Shown here: piece by piece, positions 4,185-55,465 of the stretch | Layout: each line of letters opens with the position of its first letter | Position numbering within the stretch: the stretch's first letter is position 1 | NCBI GenBank assembly: GCA_001775095.1 | Contig: MFCA01000022.1 | Span: 2,162 to 66,161 of the forward strand | Direction: 5' to 3' | From: Candidatus Curtissbacteria bacterium RIFOXYA1_FULL_41_14 | GTDB taxonomy: Bacteria; Patescibacteriota; Microgenomatia; Curtissbacterales; GWA2-41-24 | DNA: 64,000 bases | Notes under the pieces: generated by a model | Told to the model about the DNA's origin: nothing | What the model saw: the letters and a program-made list of their open reading frames with translations, nothing else | Database searches by the model: none | Made by a program: the position numbers and the translations under genes

Positions 4185-5246
4185 TTGGTTAAACTTATGA
4201 GGAAGTCTTTGATTGTTTTAGTTATCCTAGTGGTGGTCTCGAGCGCATTTTATTTTTTAAGGCATCGGTCAAATTCAACCTTTACAAGTCCTAATTCCGA
4301 AACTCTCCAACAGAAATCAACGCCTCTTATCAAATACGCCATAGAAGCATTATCTAAAACCAATTTTAATCCCAGTCAAATTTCTCTGGGCGAACTAGTT
4401 AACAGCACGCCCGATTTTACCTCGCGGATATTTTACTTTTATGTTGATCCTTCGATAAACTCAGGACAAGGTAGAAAGGTTAGCGGGCTTATTAATATTC
4501 CCAACAATGGCACAGATTTACCGGTAATTGTGATGTTTCGCGGTTATGTTGATCGGGAAAAGTACCAAACGGGCGTTGGCACTAATCATGCCGGAGAAGT
4601 TTTTGCAAAAAATGGTTTTATTACTTTGGCCCCTGACTTTTTGGGTTATGGGGAATCTGATATGCCTTCTGAAAACCCTATGGAGGAGCGTTTTCAAACC
4701 CATACGACTGCTCTGACTTTGCTTGCGTCGGTTAAAAATTTGAATGCGGCTTTGTCGGAAGCTGGCGTTGCTGCGAGGGCGGATCCTGACAGAATTGCCA
4801 TCTGGGGGCACAGTAATGGAGGCCAAATTGCCCTAACGATTTTGGAAATTACCGGCAAGAGTTATCCCACAGTTCTCTGGGCGCCGGTTTCTAAACCGTT
4901 TCCGTATTCAATCCTTTACTATACTGATGATTTTGATGACCATGGCAGGATGTTGAGAAAAGTCGTTGCCGATTTTGAAAAGGATTATGACTCAGAGGGT
5001 TATTCACTGGCTAGTTATTTTGAAAAGATAAAAGCGCCTGTGCAGTTGCATCAAGGAGGAGCGGACGAAGCAGTTCCCCTGAAATGGTCAGATCAACTTT
5101 ATGAGCAACTTAAAGAACTAGACAGGGATATCCAATACTTTACCTACACCGGCGAAGACCATAATTTTGCCCAAGGCGCCTGGGGACAGGTTGTCAATCG
5201 GAATATTGTGTTTTATCAGAGGCAATTTGGTAGTAATAAAGAGTAA
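4185..5246 (+). CDS. Alpha/beta-hydrolase (S9 peptidase / dienelactone-hydrolase-like), N-terminally anchored. The start may be the ATG at 4197.
   Basis: Nucleophile elbow GHSNGG, a downstream HQGGADEAVP region and an N-terminal TM. Confidence 0.6.
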   Translation: MVKLMRKSLIVLVILVVVSSAFYFLRHRSNSTFTSPNSETLQQKSTPLIKYAIEALSKTNFNPSQISLGELVNSTPDFTSRIFYFYVDPSINSGQGRKVSGLINIPNNGTDLPVIVMFRGYVDREKYQTGVGTNHAGEVFAKNGFITLAPDFLGYGESDMPSENPMEERFQTHTTALTLLASVKNLNAALSEAGVAARADPDRIAIWGHSNGGQIALTILEITGKSYPTVLWAPVSKPFPYSILYYTDDFDDHGRMLRKVVADFEKDYDSEGYSLASYFEKIKAPVQLHQGGADEAVPLKWSDQLYEQLKELDRDIQYFTYTGEDHNFAQGAWGQVVNRNIVFYQRQFGSNKE

Positions 5247-5638: not shown

Positions 5639-5715
5639 ATAATTTGGTTGGCCTAATCTATTATAACTTTAATCTATATCTTCTGACTATCTCTTAAGGT
5701 AGATAGTTAGTCCTA

Positions 5716-5752
5716 CTCTGAAAAGAGATCCTTCGTCGAGTCAGACTCGACT
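5716..5752. repeat. Mini hairpin repeat AGATCCTTCGTCGAGTCAGACTCGACTCAGGATGAC, palindrome GTCGAGTC-A-GACTCGAC. A second copy lies at 45611-45646.
   Basis: Two near-identical copies read directly. The same hairpin is nested inside the element at 28115-28188. Confidence 0.55.
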
Positions 5753-5765
5753 CAGGATGACAGGA

Positions 5766-5793
5766 CGCGGGCTAGTTGACAAAATTTTTTTCA
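5766..5793 (+). promoter_or_regulatory. Candidate sigma70-like promoter (TTGACA ... TATAAAAAT) for the VOC-family gene
   Basis: Hexamers read directly. Spacing is 12-15 nt depending on which -10 hexamer is chosen. Confidence 0.3.
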
Positions 5794-5864
5794 TAGTATA
5801 AAAATACACCTTTTAAAGAAAGCCCTCCTGCGCTAAAGCTTCGGAGGGTGAAAGGAGGTGAAAT

Positions 5865-6248
5865 ATGAATAAAGTTGTGCATTTTGAAATTCCGGCCGAG
5901 GATTTAGACCGTGCTAATGAATTTTACAAGAGGATCTTCGGTTGGCAAATCAAGGATGTCTCGATGAACGGGATGACATATTTTATTGCGACTACGGTTG
6001 CGACTGATTCCAAGAATATGCCGATGGAAGCTGGAGCGATTAACGGAGGATTGATGAAGCGCTCGAAAGATGTACGCTCTCCGGTTTTTGCGATTGACGT
6101 TGATTCGATAGACGAATACACCAAGAAAATTAAGTCAGCCGGCGGTGAAGTGGTAATGCCTAAGATGCAAGTCGGTGATATGGGATATTACGCGTATGTC
6201 AAAGATACCGAAGGCAATGTTTTCGGTATTTGGGAAACTATAAGGTAA
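5865..6248 (+). CDS. VOC/glyoxalase-bleomycin-resistance family protein
   Basis: VHFEIPAEDLDRANEFYKRIFGW is a typical VOC N-terminus. Confidence 0.6.
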   Translation: MNKVVHFEIPAEDLDRANEFYKRIFGWQIKDVSMNGMTYFIATTVATDSKNMPMEAGAINGGLMKRSKDVRSPVFAIDVDSIDEYTKKIKSAGGEVVMPKMQVGDMGYYAYVKDTEGNVFGIWETIR

Positions 6249-6289
6249 TAAGCGAAGCAGATCTCCGTAATCACTAGATGGACAGGTAA

Positions 6290-6400
6290 GATAGTCTATT
6301 GAAAACTATTATTCTTCGAACAAAGTGAGAAGTCTCACAGTTCTCGCTCCGGAGAGTACCAGCCGGTACCCTCCTACGCTCGAACAATACAATAACGGTT
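6290..6400. mobile_element. MITE-like palindromic element copy A. Core GGAGAGTACC-N-GGTAC(C)CTCC flanked by inverted TTATTCTTCGAACAA / TTGTTCGAGCG arms.
   Basis: Four copies in this window (6290-6400, 24961-25150, 34981-35095, 38245-38350) are alignable by eye in both orientations. Confidence 0.6.
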
Positions 6401-6465
6401 TTCAACAAGCTCAGTTAAGTTACTTCGTGTTTTGTTTGGGCATGAGTGGTAGAATAAATTTGGTA

Positions 6466-6507
6466 ATGCAAAGAGGAATTGCTACCCTTCGACTTCGCTC
6501 AGGGTAA
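6466..6507 (+). CDS. 13-aa upstream stub ORF MQRGIATLRLRSG* that re-encodes the N-terminus of the downstream DUF763-like gene (MHRGIAT) and reads into a CTTCGACTTCGCTCAGGGTAAAC element
   Basis: Codon-by-codon comparison with the start at 6521. The two Arg codons come from different families (AGA vs CGG). Confidence 0.4.
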   Translation: MQRGIATLRLRSG

Positions 6508-6520
6508 ACTTTCAATTTTT

Positions 6521-7696
6521 ATGCACCGGGGAATAGCTACATTTACACTCGATTACGGTAAGTGTCCCAGATGGCTATTTGAGAGGATGGTAAGGCTGGG
6601 GCGGGAAATGACCCAGGTCTTGGTAGATGAATACGGACCCGAGGAGTTTATCAAGCGGATTGCCGATCCGGTTTGGTTTCAGTCTTTGGGAACTGTTTTG
6701 GCTTTTGACTGGAATGCTTCAGGGCTGACCACAATTCTGACCGCCGCTCTTAAAGAAGCGATCCGCGGCCAGGAAAAAGATTTGGGAATTTTTATTTGCG
6801 GCGGCAAAGGCAAAACCTCCAGAAAGACTCCTGATGAAATAACTGGATGGGGAAGCAGGTTGGGGTTGGAGAAGCTAGTAGTTAACAATCTGATTTACAA
6901 CTCCCGAATGTCTGCCAAAGTCGATAGCAGTCTGGTTCAAGATAATTTTCAAATTTATCATCACAGCTTTTTCTTTTCCCGAGGTGGATCATGGACAGTA
7001 GTCCAGCAGGGGATGAATACTGGTAATCAGACTGCTAGACGTTACCATTGGTACAGCGGGGATATTAACGATTTAGTCTGCGAACCTCACAGCGGTATCG
7101 TTTCCCAAGCAAAAATTGACAAAATGTTGAATATGACTGCAAAGGAAAGCGGCAGGACTAGAGATACAAGCGTCGATTTGATTTCGCAAAGCTATGTGAC
7201 CGTAATGCGCGATATTGAAATTTTAAGAAAACACTCTTCAAGTTTGTCGAGAATGATCGCCCTTCGACGACGCTCAGGGCAAGCGTTGAAGCGTAAGAAA
7301 GAAGAATTGGTACTACTTGAGCTTGCAGACAGTGAGTTTAGCTATCACCCGGTTGTAAGTGAGGATTTTTCCAGAAGTAAGTATCTTGAAAAAATTCTTG
7401 CAAAGCTGACTGGAGAGAAACCGAGAACTTATGAGGAACTATTGGCAACAGAGGGTGTTGGGCCAAAAACAATTCGGGCACTGGCACTGGTTTCTGAAAT
7501 TATCTACGGTGCAAAGCCTTCATACGAAGATCCTGCGCGCTACAGTTTCGCCCACGGCGGCAAAGACGCAACGCCTTATCCGGTAGACAAACCGACTTAC
7601 GATCAGACAATCGAGATTTTGAAAAATGCACTCAGAAAGACCAGAATCAGCTCTGTTGAAAAAGACAAAGCTCTTAGAAGACTAGGGAATGGATAG
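6521..7696 (+). CDS. DUF763-like protein. The ORF is open upstream to 6479, but ATG 6521 is the more likely start. The CCTTCGACGACGCTCAGGGCAAGC motif is in-frame at 7258-7284.
   Basis: FDWNASGLTTILTAALKEA and GVGPKTIRALALVSEIIYGAKPSYEDPARYSFAHGGKDATPYPVD resemble DUF763 from memory. Confidence 0.4.
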   Translation: MHRGIATFTLDYGKCPRWLFERMVRLGREMTQVLVDEYGPEEFIKRIADPVWFQSLGTVLAFDWNASGLTTILTAALKEAIRGQEKDLGIFICGGKGKTSRKTPDEITGWGSRLGLEKLVVNNLIYNSRMSAKVDSSLVQDNFQIYHHSFFFSRGGSWTVVQQGMNTGNQTARRYHWYSGDINDLVCEPHSGIVSQAKIDKMLNMTAKESGRTRDTSVDLISQSYVTVMRDIEILRKHSSSLSRMIALRRRSGQALKRKKEELVLLELADSEFSYHPVVSEDFSRSKYLEKILAKLTGEKPRTYEELLATEGVGPKTIRALALVSEIIYGAKPSYEDPARYSFAHGGKDATPYPVDKPTYDQTIEILKNALRKTRISSVEKDKALRRLGNG

Positions 7697-21306: not shown

Positions 21307-21321
21307 AAGGGGTTGAAACCT

Positions 21322-21396
21322 ATATTGTTCGAGCCCTTCGTCGAAGCTCAGGGCGAGAACTGTCAGACTTCTCACTTTGTTCGAAGAAGAATAAGG
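21322..21396. mobile_element. MITE-like element variant with the same TTGTTCGAGC...TTGTTCGAAGAA arms as the other copies but a CCCTTCGTCGAAGCTCAGGGCGAG core
   Basis: Arms are shared with the copies at 34981-35095 and 24961-25150. The core belongs to the CTTCG...CTCAGG motif family. Confidence 0.5.
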
Positions 21397-24960: not shown

Positions 24961-25150
24961 TTAGCTTTGAGCTTATTAACCCTTATTGTTCGAGCCCCTC
25001 GTTGAAACTCAGGACGAGAACAACATGCTTCGCATATTGTTCGAGCACAGGAGAGTACCATCCGGTACTCTCCGTAGCGAGAACTTTCTGACTTCTCACT
25101 TTGTCGAGTCTAACTCGACTTTGTTCGAAGAATAACAAGGTTTTCAACAA
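24961..25150. mobile_element. Composite, nested MITE-like element: the palindromic GGAGAGTACC core plus a CCCCTCGTTGAAACTCAGGACGAG module and a GTCGAGTCTAACTCGAC hairpin module
   Basis: Contains the arm motifs twice (TTATTGTTCGAGC at about 24983 and 25037), with different cores between them. Confidence 0.5.
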
Positions 25151-26557: not shown

Positions 26558-27637
26558 ATGAATCTGTCAGTTGGAATAGTCGGGTTACCGAACGCTGGGA
26601 AGTCGACGCTTTTTAATGCCCTTCGCTCCGCTCAGGGTAAACTCTCCGGGCTGGCTACGGTTGCGAATTATCCTTTTACGACAATTGAGCCGAATGTCGG
26701 AATAGTAGAAGTCCCTGACAAACGTCTTAAGAAGTTAAAAGAAGTTGTTGAAAAAAGCGAGGGATTGAACCCCAACTTCAAAGTTATCCCGGCAATTGTA
26801 AAATTTGTGGATATCGCCGGCCTTGTTAAAGGTGCCCATAAGGGTGAAGGTTTGGGAAATCAATTCCTCTCGCATATCCGTGAAGTTGATGCGATTGTTT
26901 TTCTGCTTCGCGACTTTGAAAACCCGGATGTTGTTAGAACCGGTGAAAATCCGGATGCGGATCTGGCGGTTTTAAAAAGTGAGCTACTTCTTAAGGATTT
27001 GGAGACAATAGAAAGGCAACAAGAAACAAGAAACAAGAAACAGGAAACAAGTAACAAGTTCAAAAGTGCTTTGGAGAAGCTTCAGGAGGGGATAGCAAAG
27101 GGGGTTATGGCAAAGGATATTCAGTTGGACCAGCAGGAGCAACAGGAAGCAAAAAGCTTAAGCCTTTTAACATCAAAGGAATTTTTGATTGTCGTAAACA
27201 GTAATGAGGGTGATCTAAACAAAGAGCCACCGATTAATGGGTCGATTAGGATTAGTGCCAAACTTGAGAGTGAACTAGCTGATTTATCCCGTGAGGAGCA
27301 AGAGGAATATCTAAAAGAACTGGGTGTTTCGGAACCGGGACTTAATCGGTTGATTAAAATAGCCTATGAAACTTTAGGACTTTGTACATTCTTTACTGCC
27401 GGACCGAAAGAAGTTCGTGCCTGGACTGTTCGATGCGGTTCGCTTGCTCCTGCGGCAGCTGGCGTAATCCACAGCGATTTTGAAAGAGGATTTATCGCGG
27501 CAGATGTAATTAGTTGGGAAGAACTAGTTAAGATTGGCGGCTGGCAAAAAGCAAAAGCGGGAGGACTTATTAAAACAGTCGGAAAGTCGGAAGAAATTAA
27601 AGACGGGATGGTTGTGGAATTTAAGTTTAGTGTTTGA
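26558..27637 (+). CDS. ychF: Ribosome-binding ATPase YchF. The CCTTCGCTCCGCTCAGGGTAAAC element is in-frame near codons 22-30, and a heptamer SSR lies in the helical domain.
   Basis: G1 motif [18 protein letters not shown]-terminal TGS domain [25 protein letters not shown]. Confidence 0.8.
27018..27059 (+). repeat. Six tandem heptamers (AACAAGA-like) inside ychF, encoding [14 protein letters not shown]
   Basis: CAACAAGAAACAAGAAACAAGAAACAGGAAACAAGTAACAAG read directly. 42 nt, so the frame is preserved. Confidence 0.6.
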
Positions 27638-27671: not shown

Positions 27672-28118
27672 ATGCGCTACGATTTAATGGTTGCTGTTGG
27701 TATCAAGGATGCGGACTCACTTGCCGGCAAACTTGAGAAATTTATTAAAGATGCTGCGGCGCAAGAGGTAAAAGTTGAGAAGCTGGGCAAAAAGACCTTA
27801 GCTTATCCTATTGCCAAGCAGCTAGAGGCCGAGTATTTCCTGTTTAATTTCGAGGCCCCGGCAGAGGCAATTTCTGCAATTACTCAAAACCTAAGACTTG
27901 AGCGAGAGACAATATTGAGGTATCTTTTAACAAAGGTAACAAAAGTAACAAAAGGAACAAGGGGTACAAAGGGAACAAAAGAGTTAATAGAATCAGAGGG
28001 TGAGAAAACAAAAGAAACAGGGAAAGTTGTGGTAAAGACGGTAGTAAAGGCAGGTACAAAGGTAACGAAAGGAACAAAGGGTACAAAAGGAACAAAAGTG
28101 AAAGGAAAGAAAAGTTGA
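27672..28118 (+). CDS. rpsF: 30S ribosomal protein S6 with a lysine-rich low-complexity C-terminal extension
   Basis: MRYDLMVAVGIKDAD...KTLAYPIAKQLEAEYFLFNFEA is an S6 core. The tail is KVTKGTKGTKGTK. Confidence 0.8.
   Translation: MRYDLMVAVGIKDADSLAGKLEKFIKDAAAQEVKVEKLGKKTLAYPIAKQLEAEYFLFNFEAPAEAISAITQNLRLERETILRYLLTKVTKVTKGTRGTKGTKELIESEGEKTKETGKVVVKTVVKAGTKVTKGTKGTKGTKVKGKKS
27934..28100 (+). repeat. Two blocks of tandem 9-nt repeats (GGTAACAAA / AGGAACAAA / GGGTACAAA) inside rpsF, encoding (V/G)TKG repeats
   Basis: Read directly. The repeats are multiples of 3 and in-frame. Confidence 0.55.
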
Positions 28119-28200: not shown

Positions 28201-28764
28201 ATGGCAAGTAGAGCATCGTTGAACAAAGTATTATTAATTGGAAATCTGACAAGAGATCCGGAGTTGAGATATACGCCTTCAGGCGCGGCGGTTTGTTCTT
28301 TCGGGCTGGCTACAAATAGAGTTTACGTTGCTTCTGACGGTACTAAAAAAGAGGAAGCGGAATTTATCAGGATCGTTTCCTGGAATAAACTGGCCGAGCT
28401 TTGTTCGCAGCTTCTTTCAAAAGGCAGGAAAGTTTATGTTGAAGGAAGATTGCAGACGAGAAGCTGGGAGACCCCCGATGGAATAACTAAGCAGACAACG
28501 GAAGTAGTTATTGATGACATGAGAATTCTGGATTCCCGCAGAAGTTTCGAGGAAGCCAGCACGGGGGAAAATATCCCTTATATAGAAAATACATCTGCAA
28601 GCCAGACAAAAGTCAAAGAGCCATCTTCCTTCGCTAAAGCTACGGAGGACAAGGAGAGTCTAAGGGTCAAAGAGTCAAAGGGGACAAAAGGGTCAAAAGA
28701 GCCAAAGGATTCAAATGGAGGCGGAGATGAGGATAAAATAGATTTAGACGATTTGCCATTTTAA
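28201..28764 (+). CDS. ssb: Single-stranded DNA-binding protein
   Basis: OB-fold N-terminus LNKVLLIGNLTRDPELRYTPSGAAVCSF...W. Acidic tail ending in DDLPF. Confidence 0.8.
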   Translation: MASRASLNKVLLIGNLTRDPELRYTPSGAAVCSFGLATNRVYVASDGTKKEEAEFIRIVSWNKLAELCSQLLSKGRKVYVEGRLQTRSWETPDGITKQTTEVVIDDMRILDSRRSFEEASTGENIPYIENTSASQTKVKEPSSFAKATEDKESLRVKESKGTKGSKEPKDSNGGGDEDKIDLDDLPF

Positions 28765-34980: not shown

Positions 34981-35095
34981 TGTTAAAAACCCTTATTGTT
35001 CGAGCACAGGAGAGTACCGTCCGGTACTCTCCGCAGCGAGAACTCAAACTTCTCACGTTGTTCGAAGAATAATAGTTTTCAATAGACTATCGATG
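34981..35095. mobile_element. MITE-like palindromic element copy C
   Basis: CCCTTATTGTTCGAGCACAGGAGAGTACCGTCCGGTACTCTCCGCAGCGAGAAC...TTCTCACGTTGTTCGAAGAATAA, a near-perfect RC of copy D. Confidence 0.65.
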
Positions 35096-38134: not shown

Positions 38135-38445
38135 AATTTCTAATTGCCTTAATTACTAAAAACCCTAAACTCTAAATTCTAAACTCCTGCCTGCCGGCAG
38201 GCAGGCTAAACAATTTCAAAATACAAAACTCAAATGATCAAAAAAGAGATAGTCTATTGAAATCCTTATTCTTCGAACAACGTGAGAAGTTTGAGTTCTC
38301 GCTGCGGAGAGTACCGTCCGGTACTCTCCTGCGCTCGAACAATATGTTTATCATCCTGTTTTGAATTTTAGATTTACCTCATTTGGATTTATTTAGGATT
38401 TAGAAATTAGAAATTAGAATTTTACTCTTTAGGTCTTTTAGCTTA
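38135..38445. repeat. AT-rich element copy 2, interrupted by a nested MITE-like copy D (38245-38350) and an extra CCTGCCTGCCGGCAGGCAGG palindrome. Lies between divergent gene starts.
   Basis: Both flanks align with copy 3. The MITE-like copy D (38245-38350) sits between them. Confidence 0.6.
38245..38350. mobile_element. MITE-like palindromic element copy D, nested inside the AT-rich element
   Basis: Reverse complement of copy C. Confidence 0.65.
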
Positions 38446-48188: not shown

Positions 48189-48338
48189 ATGGGTAATTTC
48201 GGAGGATTCTATATCAGCAGGTCGCCTCGGTACAGTCCTTCGACTGCGCTCAGGACTTCATGCCGATGGCGCTTTTCTGATATAAAATTATTGTATTCGC
48301 ACATGGATATTCATAAAAAATATGAAGTAGGAGAGTAA
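48189..48338 (+). CDS. 49-aa upstream stub ORF beginning MGNFGGFYISR. It mimics the N-terminus of the next gene (MGTYGGFYKGE), reads through a repeat element and stops 3 nt before that gene's ATG.
   Basis: Read directly. AAGAGGTG upstream. TAA at 48336-48338. Confidence 0.4.
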   Translation: MGNFGGFYISRSPRYSPSTALRTSCRWRFSDIKLLYSHMDIHKKYEVGE

Positions 48339-48341
48339 CTA

Positions 48342-48479
48342 ATGGGTACTTACGGTGGATTTTATAAAGGGGAGCGTAAGAAACTAAAAAAAGAGGTTTT
48401 GGAAAAAAAGGCTGCAAAAATAAAGCGGATTGCAACAATTCCTCAAGTAGAAATCCTCGGTAAAAAAGGGAAGTAAGTT
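48342..48479 (+). CDS. 45-aa lysine-rich small protein MGTYGGFYKGERKKLKKEVLEKKAAKIKRIATIPQVEILGKKGK
   Basis: Short ORF with AGGAGA 7 nt upstream. Not in the supplied ORF track because it is under 60 aa. Confidence 0.35.
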
Positions 48480-50574: not shown

Positions 50575-50731
50575 GGAACTAAATTAGATAAAAGGGGAAT
50601 GGAAGTCAATGGGTGAAAATTCTGAGACATTATTGAGAAAATTGAGTACTCAAGGTGTTCAAAGAGGTTTTTTTAAAAAAAATTTTCAAAAAGCTTGACT
50701 TTCAAGTTTTAGAAGAGTATATTTTTCGATC

Positions 50732-51625
50732 ATGGAGAGACCTATAGGTGACCAAACCCAATTTGTCCCAAGCGTGACTTTTGAAAACCTATATGGTGAT
50801 AGTAGACTAGCCCTTGACGCTTTAGAAAAAGATCTAGGAAGAGGGATTAAAGAAACACAAAAACTAAACGCTGACTGGGCCGAAGACCAGCTAAGAGTCT
50901 TAAGAAAAGATCGCAGAGAACCCTTATTGGATATTTTGCTGGTTGATGAAAATGGTCAGATACTCAGGGCTATTTCTACATACTGGTCATACGCACGCAA
51001 TGCGCAACTTGCTTTATCTCCTACCGATTTAGCCCAGTTCACTGTAAAGAATAAAAAAATAGTTTATCCGTTAGTACCCCAAAATGATTCTGCACTTTTC
51101 TGGTTGGCTAGGGATGAAGGTAGGGTTCAATCAGCATTACAAAAATATTTTGGTGAAGTAGAAGTGGGGGATTATTTAGCAGCTCATCCAGCTGCAAGTG
51201 AAATGACTGGGTCTGTTAGACTAGCATGGGTACAAAAAGGAAGGGCTGGCAAAAGTAAGTTTGCAGATGAAGGTATAATTTTTGGCAATTTGGGTTTCTG
51301 GGTGAATCGAAAGCTCAGACTTGGCAATTCTGGACCTGGTATATATGTTCAAAGAGTCCGTTTTGATGACTCAAGGTTGCTCCCAGAAGATACGTATATC
51401 TCGCCGTTAGATCCAACGCAAGTTAACAAACGTGGTGGAAAGGTGATGGAAGACAAATATCCTAATGTGAGAGTGATTAGGGTAGATCCAGTATTATCAA
51501 AGCATGACTTTATTCCACTTGCACTAAATTCTTCTCCGAATTCTGAATATCCAGTTGTACTTAGTTATACAACTGCAAGACCATGGCTTGACTGGGTGCC
51601 CAAGCATGGGGGCGTAAGTTCTTAA
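50732..51625 (+). CDS. Hypothetical protein (no recognisable family)
   Basis: Long ORF with coding-like composition. Appears somewhat GC-richer than its surroundings by eye. Confidence 0.35.
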   Translation: MERPIGDQTQFVPSVTFENLYGDSRLALDALEKDLGRGIKETQKLNADWAEDQLRVLRKDRREPLLDILLVDENGQILRAISTYWSYARNAQLALSPTDLAQFTVKNKKIVYPLVPQNDSALFWLARDEGRVQSALQKYFGEVEVGDYLAAHPAASEMTGSVRLAWVQKGRAGKSKFADEGIIFGNLGFWVNRKLRLGNSGPGIYVQRVRFDDSRLLPEDTYISPLDPTQVNKRGGKVMEDKYPNVRVIRVDPVLSKHDFIPLALNSSPNSEYPVVLSYTTARPWLDWVPKHGGVSS

Positions 51626-51707
51626 CTTTGACCGGGTCCCATACTATCAGGGATCCAACCCCTAAGACATTTGCTTTTCTAATCACCAGAGTGTATATTC
51701 CCAGACT

Positions 51708-52865
51708 ATGAGTGCGGAGAGAGTGTTTGTTCCATATGAGGAGAGAGTTGCCACTGTTGTTGGCCGTAAAGGAGCTCTAGGGAGTAGAGTATTTCCATGC
51801 TACCAAGAAGCAGGCTTTAGAGAGGTTCATGGTTGTGAGCAAGGTGATCCCTTTTTAGATTTTGTTAACCGATCGACTGATTTATTTCTAGCTGTTGACG
51901 ATGCAGAGGTAATCTCTCTTTTAGAAATTGCCAAATTCCATTTAGGCCCCCAACATACAATTCTTGACGGTGCAAGCAATAAAAGCAATGCAATCGATAT
52001 TTACCTTGATGTAGATAGCAGAGGAGCAAGTGTTTGTCCGACACATCTCGGCGCCAGGCCAGACCATCCCTGGCAAGGTATGAAATTTTGGTTATGTCGG
52101 GTTGGTCAGAATTGCGAAAGAGGGATTCGCACAGGGATGGATTTATTTATAGCAAGGAATGTGGCAATAGATGTAATCGATGTTGAAGAGCATCAAAAGA
52201 TAGAAATAGATCAATGTGTAACTTTTTTAACTGCTTATGTTGTTTCTGAAACACTTCGAAGTTTGGGGATTCCTCTTAAAGAATTCGATTGTTTCGCAAC
52301 CTTAAATGCAGAATTTTTAGCGCTGCTTGCCGGAAGAACACAAGGCCAAGGGGTTAAGGTTCCTTCAGAAGTCTTATTCCGACAAGATAGAAAGTTTGAA
52401 ATAATCGGGGCGCTACAAGCGGCCTTAGAAAGATTAAAGCAAGCTTTATCTGATAGGGAAGAATTAGAGAAATTGATGCAAACAAATATCGATTATCATG
52501 ACAACCCCGAAGGATTAATTGGCCAATTATTCAGAAAAGCGGGAATAGTAGGGTCAAGAAACGCCAATCTTAGAATGTGTAGTTTAAGCTTCAGAATAAC
52601 CAGGGATAGGCCGGGGAAACTGAGGGATGTTCTCAAGCCATTTTTTGTGGAAGATGTTAACTTGACTGCAATTGATTCAATGCAGGGTGAAATTACTGAA
52701 GAAGAAAGACTAAGAGGTGTCGATCCAGACGGGATTATCGACTTTGACATTGGTGTTAATCCCAAAACAATCAATCCAGAAAAGGCTCGCAGGATAAAAG
52801 AAACACTGTGGGCAATGGGCTGTCAGGTTGCGGATTTTCCCTTTGACAAAGAAAATTCACAATAG
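51708..52865 (+). CDS. Prephenate/arogenate-dehydrogenase-like protein with a C-terminal ACT domain (tentative)
   Basis: N-terminal Rossmann VVGRKGALGS. A HPWQG region resembling TyrA HPMAG. C-terminal ACT-like LSFRITRDRPGKLRDVLKPF. Confidence 0.4.
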   Translation: MSAERVFVPYEERVATVVGRKGALGSRVFPCYQEAGFREVHGCEQGDPFLDFVNRSTDLFLAVDDAEVISLLEIAKFHLGPQHTILDGASNKSNAIDIYLDVDSRGASVCPTHLGARPDHPWQGMKFWLCRVGQNCERGIRTGMDLFIARNVAIDVIDVEEHQKIEIDQCVTFLTAYVVSETLRSLGIPLKEFDCFATLNAEFLALLAGRTQGQGVKVPSEVLFRQDRKFEIIGALQAALERLKQALSDREELEKLMQTNIDYHDNPEGLIGQLFRKAGIVGSRNANLRMCSLSFRITRDRPGKLRDVLKPFFVEDVNLTAIDSMQGEITEEERLRGVDPDGIIDFDIGVNPKTINPEKARRIKETLWAMGCQVADFPFDKENSQ

Positions 52866-52914
52866 AACTTCACAAAAAATTGACTAAATTCTATAATAGG
52901 CGCAAAGGAGTTTT

Positions 52915-53034
52915 ATGAGCGGACATTCGAAGTGGAGCCAAATATTAGCAGGTAGTCTTGGCACGCTTCGTCGTGCCAATGGCGCTCCTCTGATATTTGC
53001 GACCATAAGGAGGATTTCCTATGTCAGGTCATAG
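52915..53034 (+). CDS. 39-aa upstream stub ORF beginning MSGHSKWSQI, identical to the YebC N-terminus but with different synonymous codons. It reads through a repeat element and terminates 14 nt into yebC.
   Basis: Read directly. AAGGAG upstream. Stop TAG at 53032-53034. Confidence 0.45.
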   Translation: MSGHSKWSQILAGSLGTLRRANGAPLIFATIRRISYVRS

Positions 53035-53773
53035 TAAATGGTCGCAAATTAAAAGGCAAAAGGGAGTGGCGGATGTTAAACGCGGCCAGACATTTACCAA
53101 AATGGCTAACGCGATTACGATCGCCACAAGGGAAGGCGGAGGCGGTGATCCGGCAAGTAATTTTAAATTGAGGTTAGCTATTGATCAGGCCCACGCTGCC
53201 AATATGCCCAAAGAGAATATCCAGAGGGCGATTGACAGAGGTCTAGGCAAAGGTGGAGGAGCAGGGCAACTCGAATCTGTCGTTTATGAGGGCTACGGAC
53301 CTGGTAAAGTTGCATTAGTTATTGAAGCAACAACTGACAATAAAAATCGTACTACATCCGAAGTCAAAAATCTTATTGAAAGACTTGACGGTTCTTTTGT
53401 TTCTCCGGGGGCTATTTCCTGGATGTTTGCAGACCAGGGACAAATTACTGTCTCAAAAGAGGGTAAGAGTCTGGATGTGGTCTTTGACCTGGCAGCCGAG
53501 GCCGGAGCTGAGGATGTTGAAGAGGCCGGGGACGAGATTCTTGTCTATACAAAGCCACATGAAGTCGAAAGCGTAAAGAGTCAACTAGTTGAAAAAGGTT
53601 TGGTTGTCAAAAACGCTGAAATTTCTAAAGTTCCCACAACGACAGTTCAAGTAACCGACGCCGATATTGCCAGAAAAATTTTAAACCTGATGGAAAAATT
53701 AGAAGAACTGGACGATATCCAAAAAGTCTGGAGCAATTTCGATATTCCGGATGAGATTTTAGAAAAAGTTTGA
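53021..53773 (+). CDS. yebC: YebC/PmpR-family transcriptional regulator / translation factor
   Basis: MSGHSKWSQIKRQKGVADVKRGQTFTK is a canonical YebC N-terminus. Full length 250 aa. Confidence 0.85.
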   Translation: MSGHSKWSQIKRQKGVADVKRGQTFTKMANAITIATREGGGGDPASNFKLRLAIDQAHAANMPKENIQRAIDRGLGKGGGAGQLESVVYEGYGPGKVALVIEATTDNKNRTTSEVKNLIERLDGSFVSPGAISWMFADQGQITVSKEGKSLDVVFDLAAEAGAEDVEEAGDEILVYTKPHEVESVKSQLVEKGLVVKNAEISKVPTTTVQVTDADIARKILNLMEKLEELDDIQKVWSNFDIPDEILEKV

Positions 53774-53824
53774 AAACGTCATTCTGAGGCGGAGGCCGAG
53801 GAATCTTGATTAAATGGAGCCCGT

Positions 53825-54055
53825 TTATTCTGCGGATGACTTGTCTCGGTCGAGGGAACTGAGTCCTGGGCCAAAGTCTATATCATAGGCTTTTCCTTTT
53901 GTTACCAAACGTAAAACAACATTTCCACCCTGGTCTAAACCGAGCATTGACTCATGGTTAGCTGGAATCTCACTTCGAGGTTTAATGCTCCGGTTTACAC
54001 CGATGGAGCCCCCGTCTTCCACACTCATAATACGTTTATCATACTGTTGGTTCAT
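53825..54055 (-). CDS. Hypothetical small protein, divergent from the regulator gene
   Basis: ORF only. Confidence 0.2.
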   Translation of the reverse strand: MNQQYDKRIMSVEDGGSIGVNRSIKPRSEIPANHESMLGLDQGGNVVLRLVTKGKAYDIDFGPGLSSLDRDKSSAE

Positions 54056-54139
54056 GTTCCCTGCTTGACAGCCTCAAAACTTTAACCTGACAAAATACTG
54101 ACACCCCTTTTTGCTTGATGAGAAGCTCTTCCTGCCTGT

Positions 54140-55465
54140 ATGATTAGGGGCGTGGGCAGTCCGATAATTGAGGTTAAATATCCAATAAAGTTCAGGGAAG
54201 AAGACGCGAAGATTTTAGGCGAACATGTCAGGCTTCGGCATAATGTTAACTTAATCGGCGCAAAAAGAGTCGGAATCGGCGATTTTTTAAATTTCTTTCT
54301 TTATCACAAGGACATCGCCAGAAAATATATCGACAGACACCACAAGCATCTTTTGATCCCGGTGGATTTGAACGATCTTGTTGAGATTAAACTTTTTGCC
54401 TTTTGGACTCTGACTTTTAAAAGAATTGTTGATGCCGTAGGGAGTTTACCGGTCGAGCCAAGCGTCAAAAAACAGATAAACGGGCTATTTTTAACTTCGA
54501 TTCAGGAAAGCGATCTATTTTTAACCGTTGAAAATTTAAGAAAATCATTAATTGAAATCGCCAAGACGGGTATCCTTCCTACAATTTTTTGGTTGCGTTT
54601 TGACAGAATAAGCGAAATTACACCCATTGATTTTTTCGCCAATCTTCAGGGTTTAAGAGAAGCAACCGGTCAGAAATTATGTTTTGTTTTGACAAGTTAT
54701 CGCGAAATTGGAAAGATAACACCTAGGCTTACCGAGAAATTACTGCCTATTTTTATTCACAATTTTTACATCAAGCCGGCAGGGGAAAAAGACGCCAAGG
54801 TCATCTTACATGAGCTAGTTAGGAAATATCATCTGAAAATAAGTGGGAAATTGGCCAAAAAAATAATCGAGGTTAGTGGCGGTCATGCCCAATATCTTTA
54901 TTTAACTCTGATTATTTTGGCGCAGTCGCTCAGAGACCAAAAGGTCGATGAGAAAATCCTTCTGGAATTAATAAGCGGTGACGAACGATTGATTTTACAA
55001 TCGGAGGAAATTTGGGACAGTTTGTTTGACGCGGAAAAAGATGCGATAGGTCTTATTACGGAAGGTAAAAAAGTCGGCGCGGATTTACGATTCAATGCGA
55101 AATATATATGGGAAACAGGCTTAGTTTTGAGAAAGTTTGACAGGCGGCAAATTTTTAGTCCGATTTTTGGCGCATATGTTCGCGAAAACGGGAAAGGTAA
55201 GGTCAACGGAAGTGTCGAATTAACCAAGAAAGAAAATCTTCTATTTTCTCTTCTTTTGGCTAGTCAAAACGAAGTTTGCGAGAGGGAAAAAATCATAGAG
55301 GCAGTTTGGGCAGAATATGAAGATTTGGGAGTTTCCGATTGGACGATTGATAAACTGGTGGCAAGGTTGCGAAATAAACTAAAAGAGCAGGGAAGCGATT
55401 TTTCGGTAATTACAGTTAAGACAAGAGGGTATAAGTTAGTTTCGACTAAGCCAAATCCATCCTGA
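54140..55465 (+). CDS. Transcriptional regulator with an N-terminal degenerate AAA/Arch_ATPase-like domain and a C-terminal OmpR/PhoB-type winged helix
   Basis: C-terminal LTKKENLLFSLLLASQNEVCEREKIIEAVW...SDWTIDKLVARLRNKL...ITVKTRGYKL matches the trans_reg_C pattern. N-terminal GAKRVGIGDF is Walker-A-like but lacks the K-T/S. Confidence 0.5.
   Translation: MIRGVGSPIIEVKYPIKFREEDAKILGEHVRLRHNVNLIGAKRVGIGDFLNFFLYHKDIARKYIDRHHKHLLIPVDLNDLVEIKLFAFWTLTFKRIVDAVGSLPVEPSVKKQINGLFLTSIQESDLFLTVENLRKSLIEIAKTGILPTIFWLRFDRISEITPIDFFANLQGLREATGQKLCFVLTSYREIGKITPRLTEKLLPIFIHNFYIKPAGEKDAKVILHELVRKYHLKISGKLAKKIIEVSGGHAQYLYLTLIILAQSLRDQKVDEKILLELISGDERLILQSEEIWDSLFDAEKDAIGLITEGKKVGADLRFNAKYIWETGLVLRKFDRRQIFSPIFGAYVRENGKGKVNGSVELTKKENLLFSLLLASQNEVCEREKIIEAVWAEYEDLGVSDWTIDKLVARLRNKLKEQGSDFSVITVKTRGYKLVSTKPNPS

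Follow-up and report, generated by a model that had tools for sequence, protein, structure and literature searches.

The 64,000-nucleotide (nt) stretch of contig MFCA01000022.1 from Candidatus Curtissbacteria bacterium RIFOXYA1_FULL_41_14 analysed here (the window) carries a gene of the DUF763 family whose first seven codons are present twice. A short stub, MQRGIAT, opens behind a presumed promoter and continues as a mini open reading frame (mini-ORF) through a small hairpin repeat. An A/T-rich spacer follows, and then the gene itself, beginning MHRGIAT (Table 1). The original prediction had described the stub codons, their continuation as LRLRSG to a stop, the repeat element and the MHRGIAT start, and all of these statements were verified at 6466-6521. 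The element that it had delimited (CTTCGACTTCGCTCAGGGTAAAC, 6487-6509) equals the core of the hairpin repeat plus AAAC. It had also called the locus a third case, and two other stub/gene pairs do exist in the window, at 48189/48342 and 52915/53021.

Table 1. Features of the DUF763 locus, its repeats and the two other stub loci (positions in the window; SD, Shine-Dalgarno motif; MITE, miniature inverted-repeat transposable element; aa, amino acids).
Feature	Position	Strand	Detail
Conserved upstream motif CTTCGTGTTTTGTTTGGG	6423-6440	+	presumed DUF763 promoter
Extended -10 box TGGTAGAAT	6447-6455	+	presumed DUF763 promoter
Stub MQRGIAT	6466-6486	+	seven codons, ATG CAA AGA GGA ATT GCT ACC; ATG 10 nt after the -10 box
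Mini-ORF MQRGIATLRLRSG, then stop	6466-6507	+	13 codons; tail CTT CGA CTT CGC TCA GGG TAA; stop TAA 6505-6507, 13 nt before the DUF763 ATG
Hairpin repeat ACCCT-TCGACTTCGCTC-AGGGT	6484-6505	+	22 nt; first bases overlap stub codon 7
Spacer ACTTTCAATTTTT	6508-6520	+	13 nt, A/T-rich, no SD
DUF763 gene	6521-7696	+	391 aa; true start ATG; Pfam PF05559, orthologue N-termini
Second N-terminal copy MHRGIAT	6521-6541	+	codons 1-7, ATG CAC CGG GGA ATA GCT ACA
In-frame repeat copy in DUF763	7259-7282	+	24 nt, GCC CTT CGA CGA CGC TCA GGG CAA = ALRRRSGQ
Hairpin repeat copies	4450, 5731, 6487, 7262, 21336, 24997, 26621, 45616, 48238	+	
MITE copy	6290-6400		family also at 21317-21393, 24978-25104, 34994-35091, 38266-38360
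Stub MGNFGGFY	48189-48212	+	
MITE-S hairpin	48211-48283	+	terminal inverted repeats ATATCAG...CTGATAT; small repeat at apex, 48235-48257
44-aa gene MGTYGGFYKGERKK	48342-48476	+	after a 58-nt spacer with SD
yebC-locus promoter TTCACA-17-TATAAT	52869-52897	+	near-consensus (11/12); SD follows
Stub MSGHSKWSQI	52915-52944	+	
MITE-S	52942-52996	+	then a 24-nt spacer with AAGGAGG
yebC gene	53021-53773	+	

The start of the gene is fixed by its relatives. The ORF from ATG 6521 matches PF05559 with an E-value of 1.5e-125 (419 bits against a cut-off of 35.5), and profile positions 1-319 align to residues 4-355, i.e., a whole-domain match above the gathering score. For comparison, the 120 best DUF763 homologues were used as the orthologue set; all are from Patescibacteria, chiefly Curtissbacteria and Daviesbacteria, and nearly all share the N-terminus M(Q/H/K/R/N/Y)RGIATFTLD, with Q commonest. 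Because these homologues open with M-x-RGIATFTLD, the stub and the gene start both copy a genuine N-terminus, and the gene truly begins at 6521. The proposed duplication is therefore real, as the orthologue N-termini were predicted to reveal. The match between the two copies also exceeds chance: a start-anchored scan of the window gave two N-terminal duplicates at five or more of six residues, against 0.10 expected when upstream regions were swapped. Other peptide duplicates from an unanchored scan (40188/40046, 57318/57259, 50341/50443 and others) were judged to be chance, since matches at six of seven residues are expected at about that rate. Arginine is encoded by AGA in the stub and by CGG in the gene, as had been pointed out, but this "codon family switch" is unremarkable, because AGA to CGA to CGG requires single synonymous steps only and orthologues use both families.

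In the public record (NCBI/ENA), the gene product is a 405-aa protein, P0001, with TTG 6479 as its start. The repeat and spacer (6479-6520) supply its first 14 residues (MLPFDFAQGKLSIF), which are absent from 119 orthologues and lie in a frame that is shut by in-frame stop codons in L003 and L052. The TTG start is not conserved and was rejected; the public annotation is probably wrong, through a mis-called start, and the case flags systematic errors of annotation in which mobile elements encode N-terminal extensions. An assembly artefact was likewise ruled out, as the same arrangement is present in two independent MEGAHIT assemblies from independent samples (L001 and L002), with one mismatch in 7.2 kb. 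Despite the public call, an explanation of the stub by faulty assembly or by a true start at TTG 6479 is so improbable that it can be set aside.

The stub stands where the gene would once have begun. The upstream motif and the -10 box are conserved in L003, L005, L046, L048, L052, L055, L006 and L053. A promoter consensus scan does not call the DUF763 promoter, finding no -35 match, and the assignment is based on this conservation. In intact orthologues (L006, L007, L053, L054 and most of 40 GTDB species loci), the ATG lies 4-10 nt after a TAnnnT box. The stub ATG occupies this position behind the same motif and box and thus represents the ancestral start, presumably read from a leaderless transcript. 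Among the 66 long ORFs of the window, 26 have a -10-like TAnnnT box 4-12 nt upstream and no SD, and an SD is present in only nine; leaderless initiation seems to be dominant in this organism. Several SD-bearing starts (5865, 48342 and 53021) sit just downstream of inserted repeats. In two relatives that lack the stub, L005 (2960-3000) and L046 (1470-1500), three-codon mini-ORFs (ATG AAG TTA TAA and ATG ATA AAC TAA, respectively) are placed between the conserved promoter motif and the DUF763 start, and L005 also carries an AAGTTAY tandem repeat.

Compared with intact orthologues, the window has 55 nt added after DUF763 codon 7, consisting of the hairpin repeat, the spacer and a second ATG with codons 2-7. 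The two copies are separated by only 34 nt (77 and 129 nt at the other two stub loci), with no ORF between them. An origin from a long 55-nt tandem duplication that was later overwritten by the element was considered and rejected, the insert being without similarity to codons 8-18.

The same architecture, with the same junction (GCN ACC followed by CTTCG), is found in five lineages: the window with L001 and L002; a close relative, L048; L003/L004/L047, with 82% amino-acid identity and a different gene neighbourhood; L052, with 78%; and L055/L056, from Curtissbacteria assembly GCA_016183325.1. A DNA-pattern scan of metagenomes returned only two loci. All five stubs read MQRGIAT. After ATG CAA, they continue AGA GGA ATT GCT ACC in the window, AGA GGG ATA GCT ACC in L048, AGG GGA ATC GCA ACC in L003, AGA GGA ATA GCG ACC in L052 and AGA GGG ATT GCC ACC in L055. 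Parsimony requires at least nine substitutions, every one of them a synonymous third-position change, with the Ala codon varying among GCT, GCA, GCG and GCC and the Ile codon among ATT, ATA and ATC. Since only about 22-30% of random changes in the stub codons would be synonymous, such a record is very unlikely under neutrality. Moreover, 52% of DUF763 four-fold sites differ between the window and L003; a dead stub would thus have had plenty of time to decay. The stub begins with 14 invariant, purine-rich nt (ATGCAAAGRGGRAT), which may serve as an initiation site.

The second copies (MHRGIAT in the window, MQRGIAT in L003, GTG-QRGIAT in L052 and MYRGIST in L055) behave as an ordinary protein N-terminus, in that their variable positions are also variable among intact orthologues. 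The second start is ATG or GTG in 5/5 lineages and has no SD (no GGAG, GAGG or AGGA before the start). The upstream ORFs (uORFs) opened by the stubs are homologous across the stub-bearing lineages, comprise 13-21 codons and stop 13 (window), 13 (L048), 14 (L003), 2 (L052) or 10 nt (L055) before the main start. A stop close to a main start that lacks an SD, as in coupled uORFs, is thus present in five lineages. The position of the stub at the ancestral leaderless start, its conservation as coding sequence in these lineages and the ending of its uORF near the real start extend the original prediction.

From these comparisons, we infer an insertion-with-duplication event, translation of the uORF, reinitiation at the gene and, in these processes, the cause of the conservation. 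With a probability of about one half, the DUF763 stub is a conserved, translated leaderless mini-ORF that arose by insertion of a hairpin repeat with duplication of seven codons and is coupled to the new start. The ancestral gene would have been read from a leaderless mRNA, its ATG about 10 nt behind the extended -10 box. A mobile hairpin repeat with an A/T-rich spacer would then have become fixed just after codon 7 in an ancestor of several lineages, and the same event would have duplicated the first ~20 nt (ATG...GCN AC), which would have restored the full frame 55 nt further on. Translation would still begin at the old start, which would have remained at the transcript's 5' end and would open a mini-ORF of 13-21 codons through the repeat. 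Ribosomes would load at the 5'-terminal AUG, finish the mini-ORF and reinitiate by translational coupling at the SD-less start 2-14 nt further on. Such reinitiation would account for the retention and conservation of the stub, for the stop tracking the start and for the start codon kept by the second copy. Insertions would be seen only with a duplicated N-terminus because other insertions near a leaderless start would silence the gene.

The coding character of the stub would be kept by its use as a ribosome-loading site, together with occasional homogenisation with the second copy. Within a genome, stub and gene use one and the same Ala-6 codon, which differs between genomes (GCT, GCA, GCG), and in L052 the two copies are identical at 19/21 positions. 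By a hand count from the alignment, third positions of codons 4-6 match in 9/15 comparisons within genomes and in 13/45 between genomes, i.e., about twice as often within. Gene conversion across the hairpin, to which these matches point, can explain part of the coding-like evolution of the stub.

A stub that evolves as a protein N-terminus would is also what translational bypass predicts. Having loaded at the 5' AUG (6466) and read MQRGIAT, ribosomes would skip some 55 nt, hairpin included, and land on the matching codon of the second copy, and the stub would be the real N-terminus. Programmed bypassing is known from T4 gene 60 and from the mitochondrial "byp" elements of Magnusiomyces. The likeness lies in a mobile hairpin-like insert of about 30-55 nt, flanked by repeated codons, in the 5' coding region; the gap here resembles the 50 nt of gene 60, and the last codon of the stub is where the hairpin begins. 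Stub and second copy share the Ala-6 codon in 4/5 lineages and codon 7 in L055 (by wobble in L052). Unlike in those systems, however, the main ORF at DUF763 keeps a start and a full N-terminus: an ATG or GTG and a complete, selectively maintained second copy, needless for a hop, are retained in 5/5 lineages. Furthermore, no stop follows the putative take-off codon, the next codon being CTT and the stop coming six codons later, and the codon match is inconsistent, with an ACC/ACA mismatch at codon 7 in three lineages. Bypass is thus a very remote prospect; if true, it would represent a gene-60/byp-like event in a bacterium of the candidate phyla radiation (CPR), created by a mobile repeat. Because the stub has Q2 and the second copy H2, the N-termini can be distinguished by proteomics, with MHRGIATFTLDYGK indicating reinitiation at 6521 and MQRGIATFTLDYGK indicating bypass.

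The first nine uORF residues and the position of the stop relative to the start are conserved in five lineages, which would equally suit a regulatory leader peptide, i.e., co-option of MQRGIATLR... as a cis-acting sensor that tunes DUF763 synthesis through stalling or attenuation. Against this, the tail of the uORF varies (LRLRSG, LRLRSE, LRFHSGSIE and LRLSPSNSQDFAQG), and neither terminator/anti-terminator pairing nor a significant fold was found at the DUF763 leader. An Rfam scan of the whole window returned tRNA only, with no family for the repeat or the uORF, and most orthologues do without a uORF. A sensory role is considered improbable.

The DUF763 locus had been described as a hotspot for repeats, and both repeats and recombination breakpoints were found there. 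An 810-nt block of the window (5647-6456), which contains the hairpin repeat at 5731, a glyoxalase-family gene (5865-6248) and the MITE at 6290-6400, is represented by 107 nt in L048. The latter has a sharp breakpoint at the spacer and start: four mismatches and a gap in 6457-6513 are followed by two mismatches in 2198 nt, so that identity is 88.5% upstream and 99.9% downstream of about 6514, and the L048 promoter is of the L006 type. This breakpoint indicates a putative recent recombination block of at least 2.2 kb. The neighbourhood of DUF763 is different in every relative. In L027, a GC-richer metagenome-assembled genome, recoded internal DUF763 codons (RMVALGRE) lie in frame upstream of a -10 box and start (1447-1476 vs 1561-1590), and this fragment may be the scar of an earlier gene copy.

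The other two stub loci differ in how their stubs have evolved. At yebC, the 39-codon uORF from 52915 overlaps the gene start by 14 nt. Stub and gene differ at 13/30 nt without any amino-acid change, and three Ser codons switch family (AGC/TCA, TCG/AGT, AGC/TCG). In L049, L050 and L051, yebC has a leaderless-type start without a stub, and the codons match the yebC gene copy, not the stub; in addition, the 2.3 kb upstream of yebC are non-syntenic with L051. For the yebC stub, the best interpretation is a probable recombination scar: the stub would be the terminus of a foreign fragment, with the MITE as the point of joining. The 48189/48342 arrangement, in turn, is conserved in L051, where a 9-nt indel and two compensating 1-nt indels hold the uORF open to the same TAA-CTA-ATG and the counterpart of the stub drifts to MGNYGELY. 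Protein searches with the uORF peptides of these two loci gave no matches.

Several minor observations concern the surroundings of yebC. Window and L051 share synteny from 41.5 to 63.9 kb, with a nucleotide identity of about 65-77%, except for insertions or replacements at 53774-55445 and 50685-53020 that flank yebC. The protein P0123 ties the yebC of the window to Candidatus Curtissbacteria bacterium RIFOXYC12_FULL_41_11. In L049 (Ga0103681_1113041), yebC is 99.5% identical to that of the window over a stretch that begins 5 nt ahead of the ATG and ends 19 nt short of the stop; the flanks are unrelated, and a GC-rich ruvC follows. L049 may be a chimeric contig or reflect a single-gene transfer, and was not built on.

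These features raise the possibility that the DUF763 stub, too, is an inert recombination scar, the remnant of a resident or donor allele that was left when a diverged allele took over the 5' end of the gene, the crossover or illegitimate junction lying at the repeat or MITE. The stub would then be functionless, and its coding look would come from history or gene conversion. Such a reading fits yebC best, on account of its switched Ser codons, the relatives that match the gene copy and the non-syntenic upstream region. It also gains from the sharp breakpoint and differently typed promoter of L048, the recoded fragment of L027, the non-synonymous changes gathered by the 48189-type stub and the shifting DUF763 neighbourhood. 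Conversely, five DUF763 stubs share one junction and show at least nine synonymous and no non-synonymous changes, and the L055 stub is still MQRGIAT although its own gene has drifted to MYRGIST. The uORF stops have remained next to the start, and a neutral remnant would be expected to decay at the four-fold divergence that separates the window from L003. For DUF763, an inert scar is possible but rather doubtful.

The hairpin repeat belongs to a family defined by the motif C(C/T)TCG-N-CT(C/T)AGG, with nine copies in the window, all on the + strand. Searches with the element itself, exact or with three mismatches, found the 6487 copy only, and the looser motif was needed to recover the family. 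Its 5-bp outer stem covaries (ACCC/GGGT, GCCC/GGGC, GTCC/GGAC, ATCC/GGAT). The recurrence that had been noticed inside DUF763 is an in-frame insertion; by codon-level orthologue comparison, the window, P0002 and P0005/L006 have it, whereas P0003, P0004 and L007 do not. In another example, a YchF-like GTPase (26618-26641) has six extra residues after the P-loop helix relative to the YchF structures 2DBY and 1JAL, and these coincide with the copy at 26621. A hydrolase gene carries the copy at 4450, the copies at 21336, 24997 and 48238 lie at the apex of larger hairpin MITEs, and in L055 (330-400) the loop of one copy harbours another. Judged by this distribution, the repeat is a mobile family that has inserted in frame into DUF763, the YchF-like GTPase and the hydrolase and has nested in other hairpins. 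It adds residues to conserved CPR proteins in units of 18-24 nt and, at no fewer than two of these loci, sits on a recombination breakpoint or close to one.

Further observations were made on the copies themselves. All nine are co-oriented with the local gene, so that an RNA-level role or strand-biased insertion is possible. Some MITE copies differ only at the apex (21317-21393 vs 24978-25104; 48211-48283 vs L051 6769-6832), as if the repeat targets hairpin loops. The DUF763 homologue P0020 carries a different in-frame insert (NRRPSTGSGPTA) at another position (residues ~155-166), which resembles the same repeat in another frame.

Short, non-coding and multi-copy sequences of the MITE kind are represented by the small hairpin with its nine copies, by the 6290-6400 family with at least five, and by MITE-S with two copies in the window and two in L051. 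The MITE-like copy reported just upstream of DUF763 is thus a member of a genuine family. MITE-S has the terminal inverted repeats ATATCAGCAGGTCGCC...GGCGCTTTTCTGATAT and forms a single long hairpin (z = -2.8 and -3.5). As target-site duplications, AT or TAT (MITE-S) and GCTAC (DUF763 insert) are compatible with the flanks; the actual duplication is 20-30 nt of coding sequence. Both MITE-S copies of the window stand directly behind stubs, and a further L051 copy precedes a start by 12 nt, the ~60 nt of upstream sequence examined there containing no stub.

That placement would be explained by a self-healing selfish cassette, in which a mobile unit of repeat, spacer, ATG and first codons uses a short core (GCTAC, CAAAT or TAT) to enter the 5' end of the homologous gene in new genomes and makes that gene whole again. 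The e14 element and phage 21 in icd, as well as tRNA-targeting islands, are integrating elements that carry a replacement gene end. As in those systems, a displaced and a working gene end with mainly synonymous differences flank inserted DNA; in contrast to them, the insert here, at the 5' end of the gene, measures 34-106 nt and lacks an integrase, and the displaced copy stands alongside and seems to be still in use. A cassette would account for the identical junction in two separate clades, for an element and spacer far more conserved than neutral sites and for the 5-9 nt core shared by both junctions in all three stub cases. However, each cassette would have to be gene-specific, and the second-copy codons diverge like host gene sequence. 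No integrase or transposase was found linked and no ORF lies between the copies, the ORFs of the window not having been screened for transposases, and no free or empty-site pairs were seen within a species. The cassette can be given little credence.

Several points weigh against the coupled mini-ORF as the explanation of the DUF763 stub. To our knowledge, no transposition mechanism makes a duplication of ~20 nt that begins at an ATG. The upstream non-coding similarity between copies is not significant in any of the stub cases, and the duplication is detectable only from the ATG on. In a simple neighbour-joining tree, the stub lineages fall into two clades (window with L003; L052 with P0028), with intact lineages between them; because they are not monophyletic, losses, transfers or repeated gains are needed. 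Element and spacer differ at only three of 35 nt between the window and L003 despite saturated synonymous sites, a near-identity that could reflect constraint or recent horizontal spread. The RNA fold of 6456-6545 is not better than that of shuffled sequences (z = 0.15), and L003 has a disrupted stem (GGG to GAG), so that at DUF763 the hairpin as such may be without a role in RNA. Promoter, leaderless status and reinitiation have each been deduced from sequence only. Finally, the 48189-type stub decays non-synonymously and the yebC stub looks foreign, and one explanation may not fit all three loci.

The closest parallels to the repeat are intragenic palindromes. The Rickettsia palindromic elements (RPEs) were reportedly described by Ogata et al. 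in 2000. According to a review on MITEs, RPEs and intragenic MITEs are small palindromic repeats of ~100-150 bp that lie in frame in unrelated protein genes (PMC10969869). The repeat of the window is likewise inserted in frame in conserved genes (DUF763, YchF and the hydrolase) and present or absent among orthologues. It differs in its unit of 18-24 nt, in its nesting in the loops of other hairpins and in the duplicated N-terminus that flanks the copies at gene starts, a feature not mentioned in those passages of the review that were searched. Judged on the repeat itself, it is also unlike the repetitive extragenic palindromes (REPs) of 20-40 nt associated with RAYT transposases, as its copies begin (A/G)(C/T)CCTTCG, not 5' GTAG, and several are intragenic.

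With coupled uORFs and leaderless initiation, the DUF763 mini-ORF shares the layout of a short ORF that has its own initiation signal and ends a few nucleotides from an SD-less start. Here, however, the uORF copies the first seven codons of the main ORF and stands at the 5' end of a presumably leaderless transcript. A limited literature search found no description of N-terminal stubs or of a uORF copying the start of its main ORF. The known themes at this locus are thus intragenic palindromic repeats and uORF coupling; what is new and unexpected is the selective maintenance of a duplicated start. The arrangement suggests that a gene can survive the arrival of mobile DNA in its first codons, provided that its start is copied and the original one persists as a mini-ORF on which ribosomes load, and it would offer a usable system for reinitiation on leaderless mRNAs.

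Two further repeats in the window touch none of these loci. The peptide IPYILW near the C-terminus of ORF 2060-1584 recurs 160 nt downstream (1626-1652 and 1466-1492, - strand) with three synonymous differences, antisense to ORF 816-1517, and is probably due to chance. In addition, 9-nt tandem repeats of the ACAAAGGTA type, which read TKVTKGTKG in one frame, are located at 27921-28107 and 28675-28726, in or near ORF 27672-28118.

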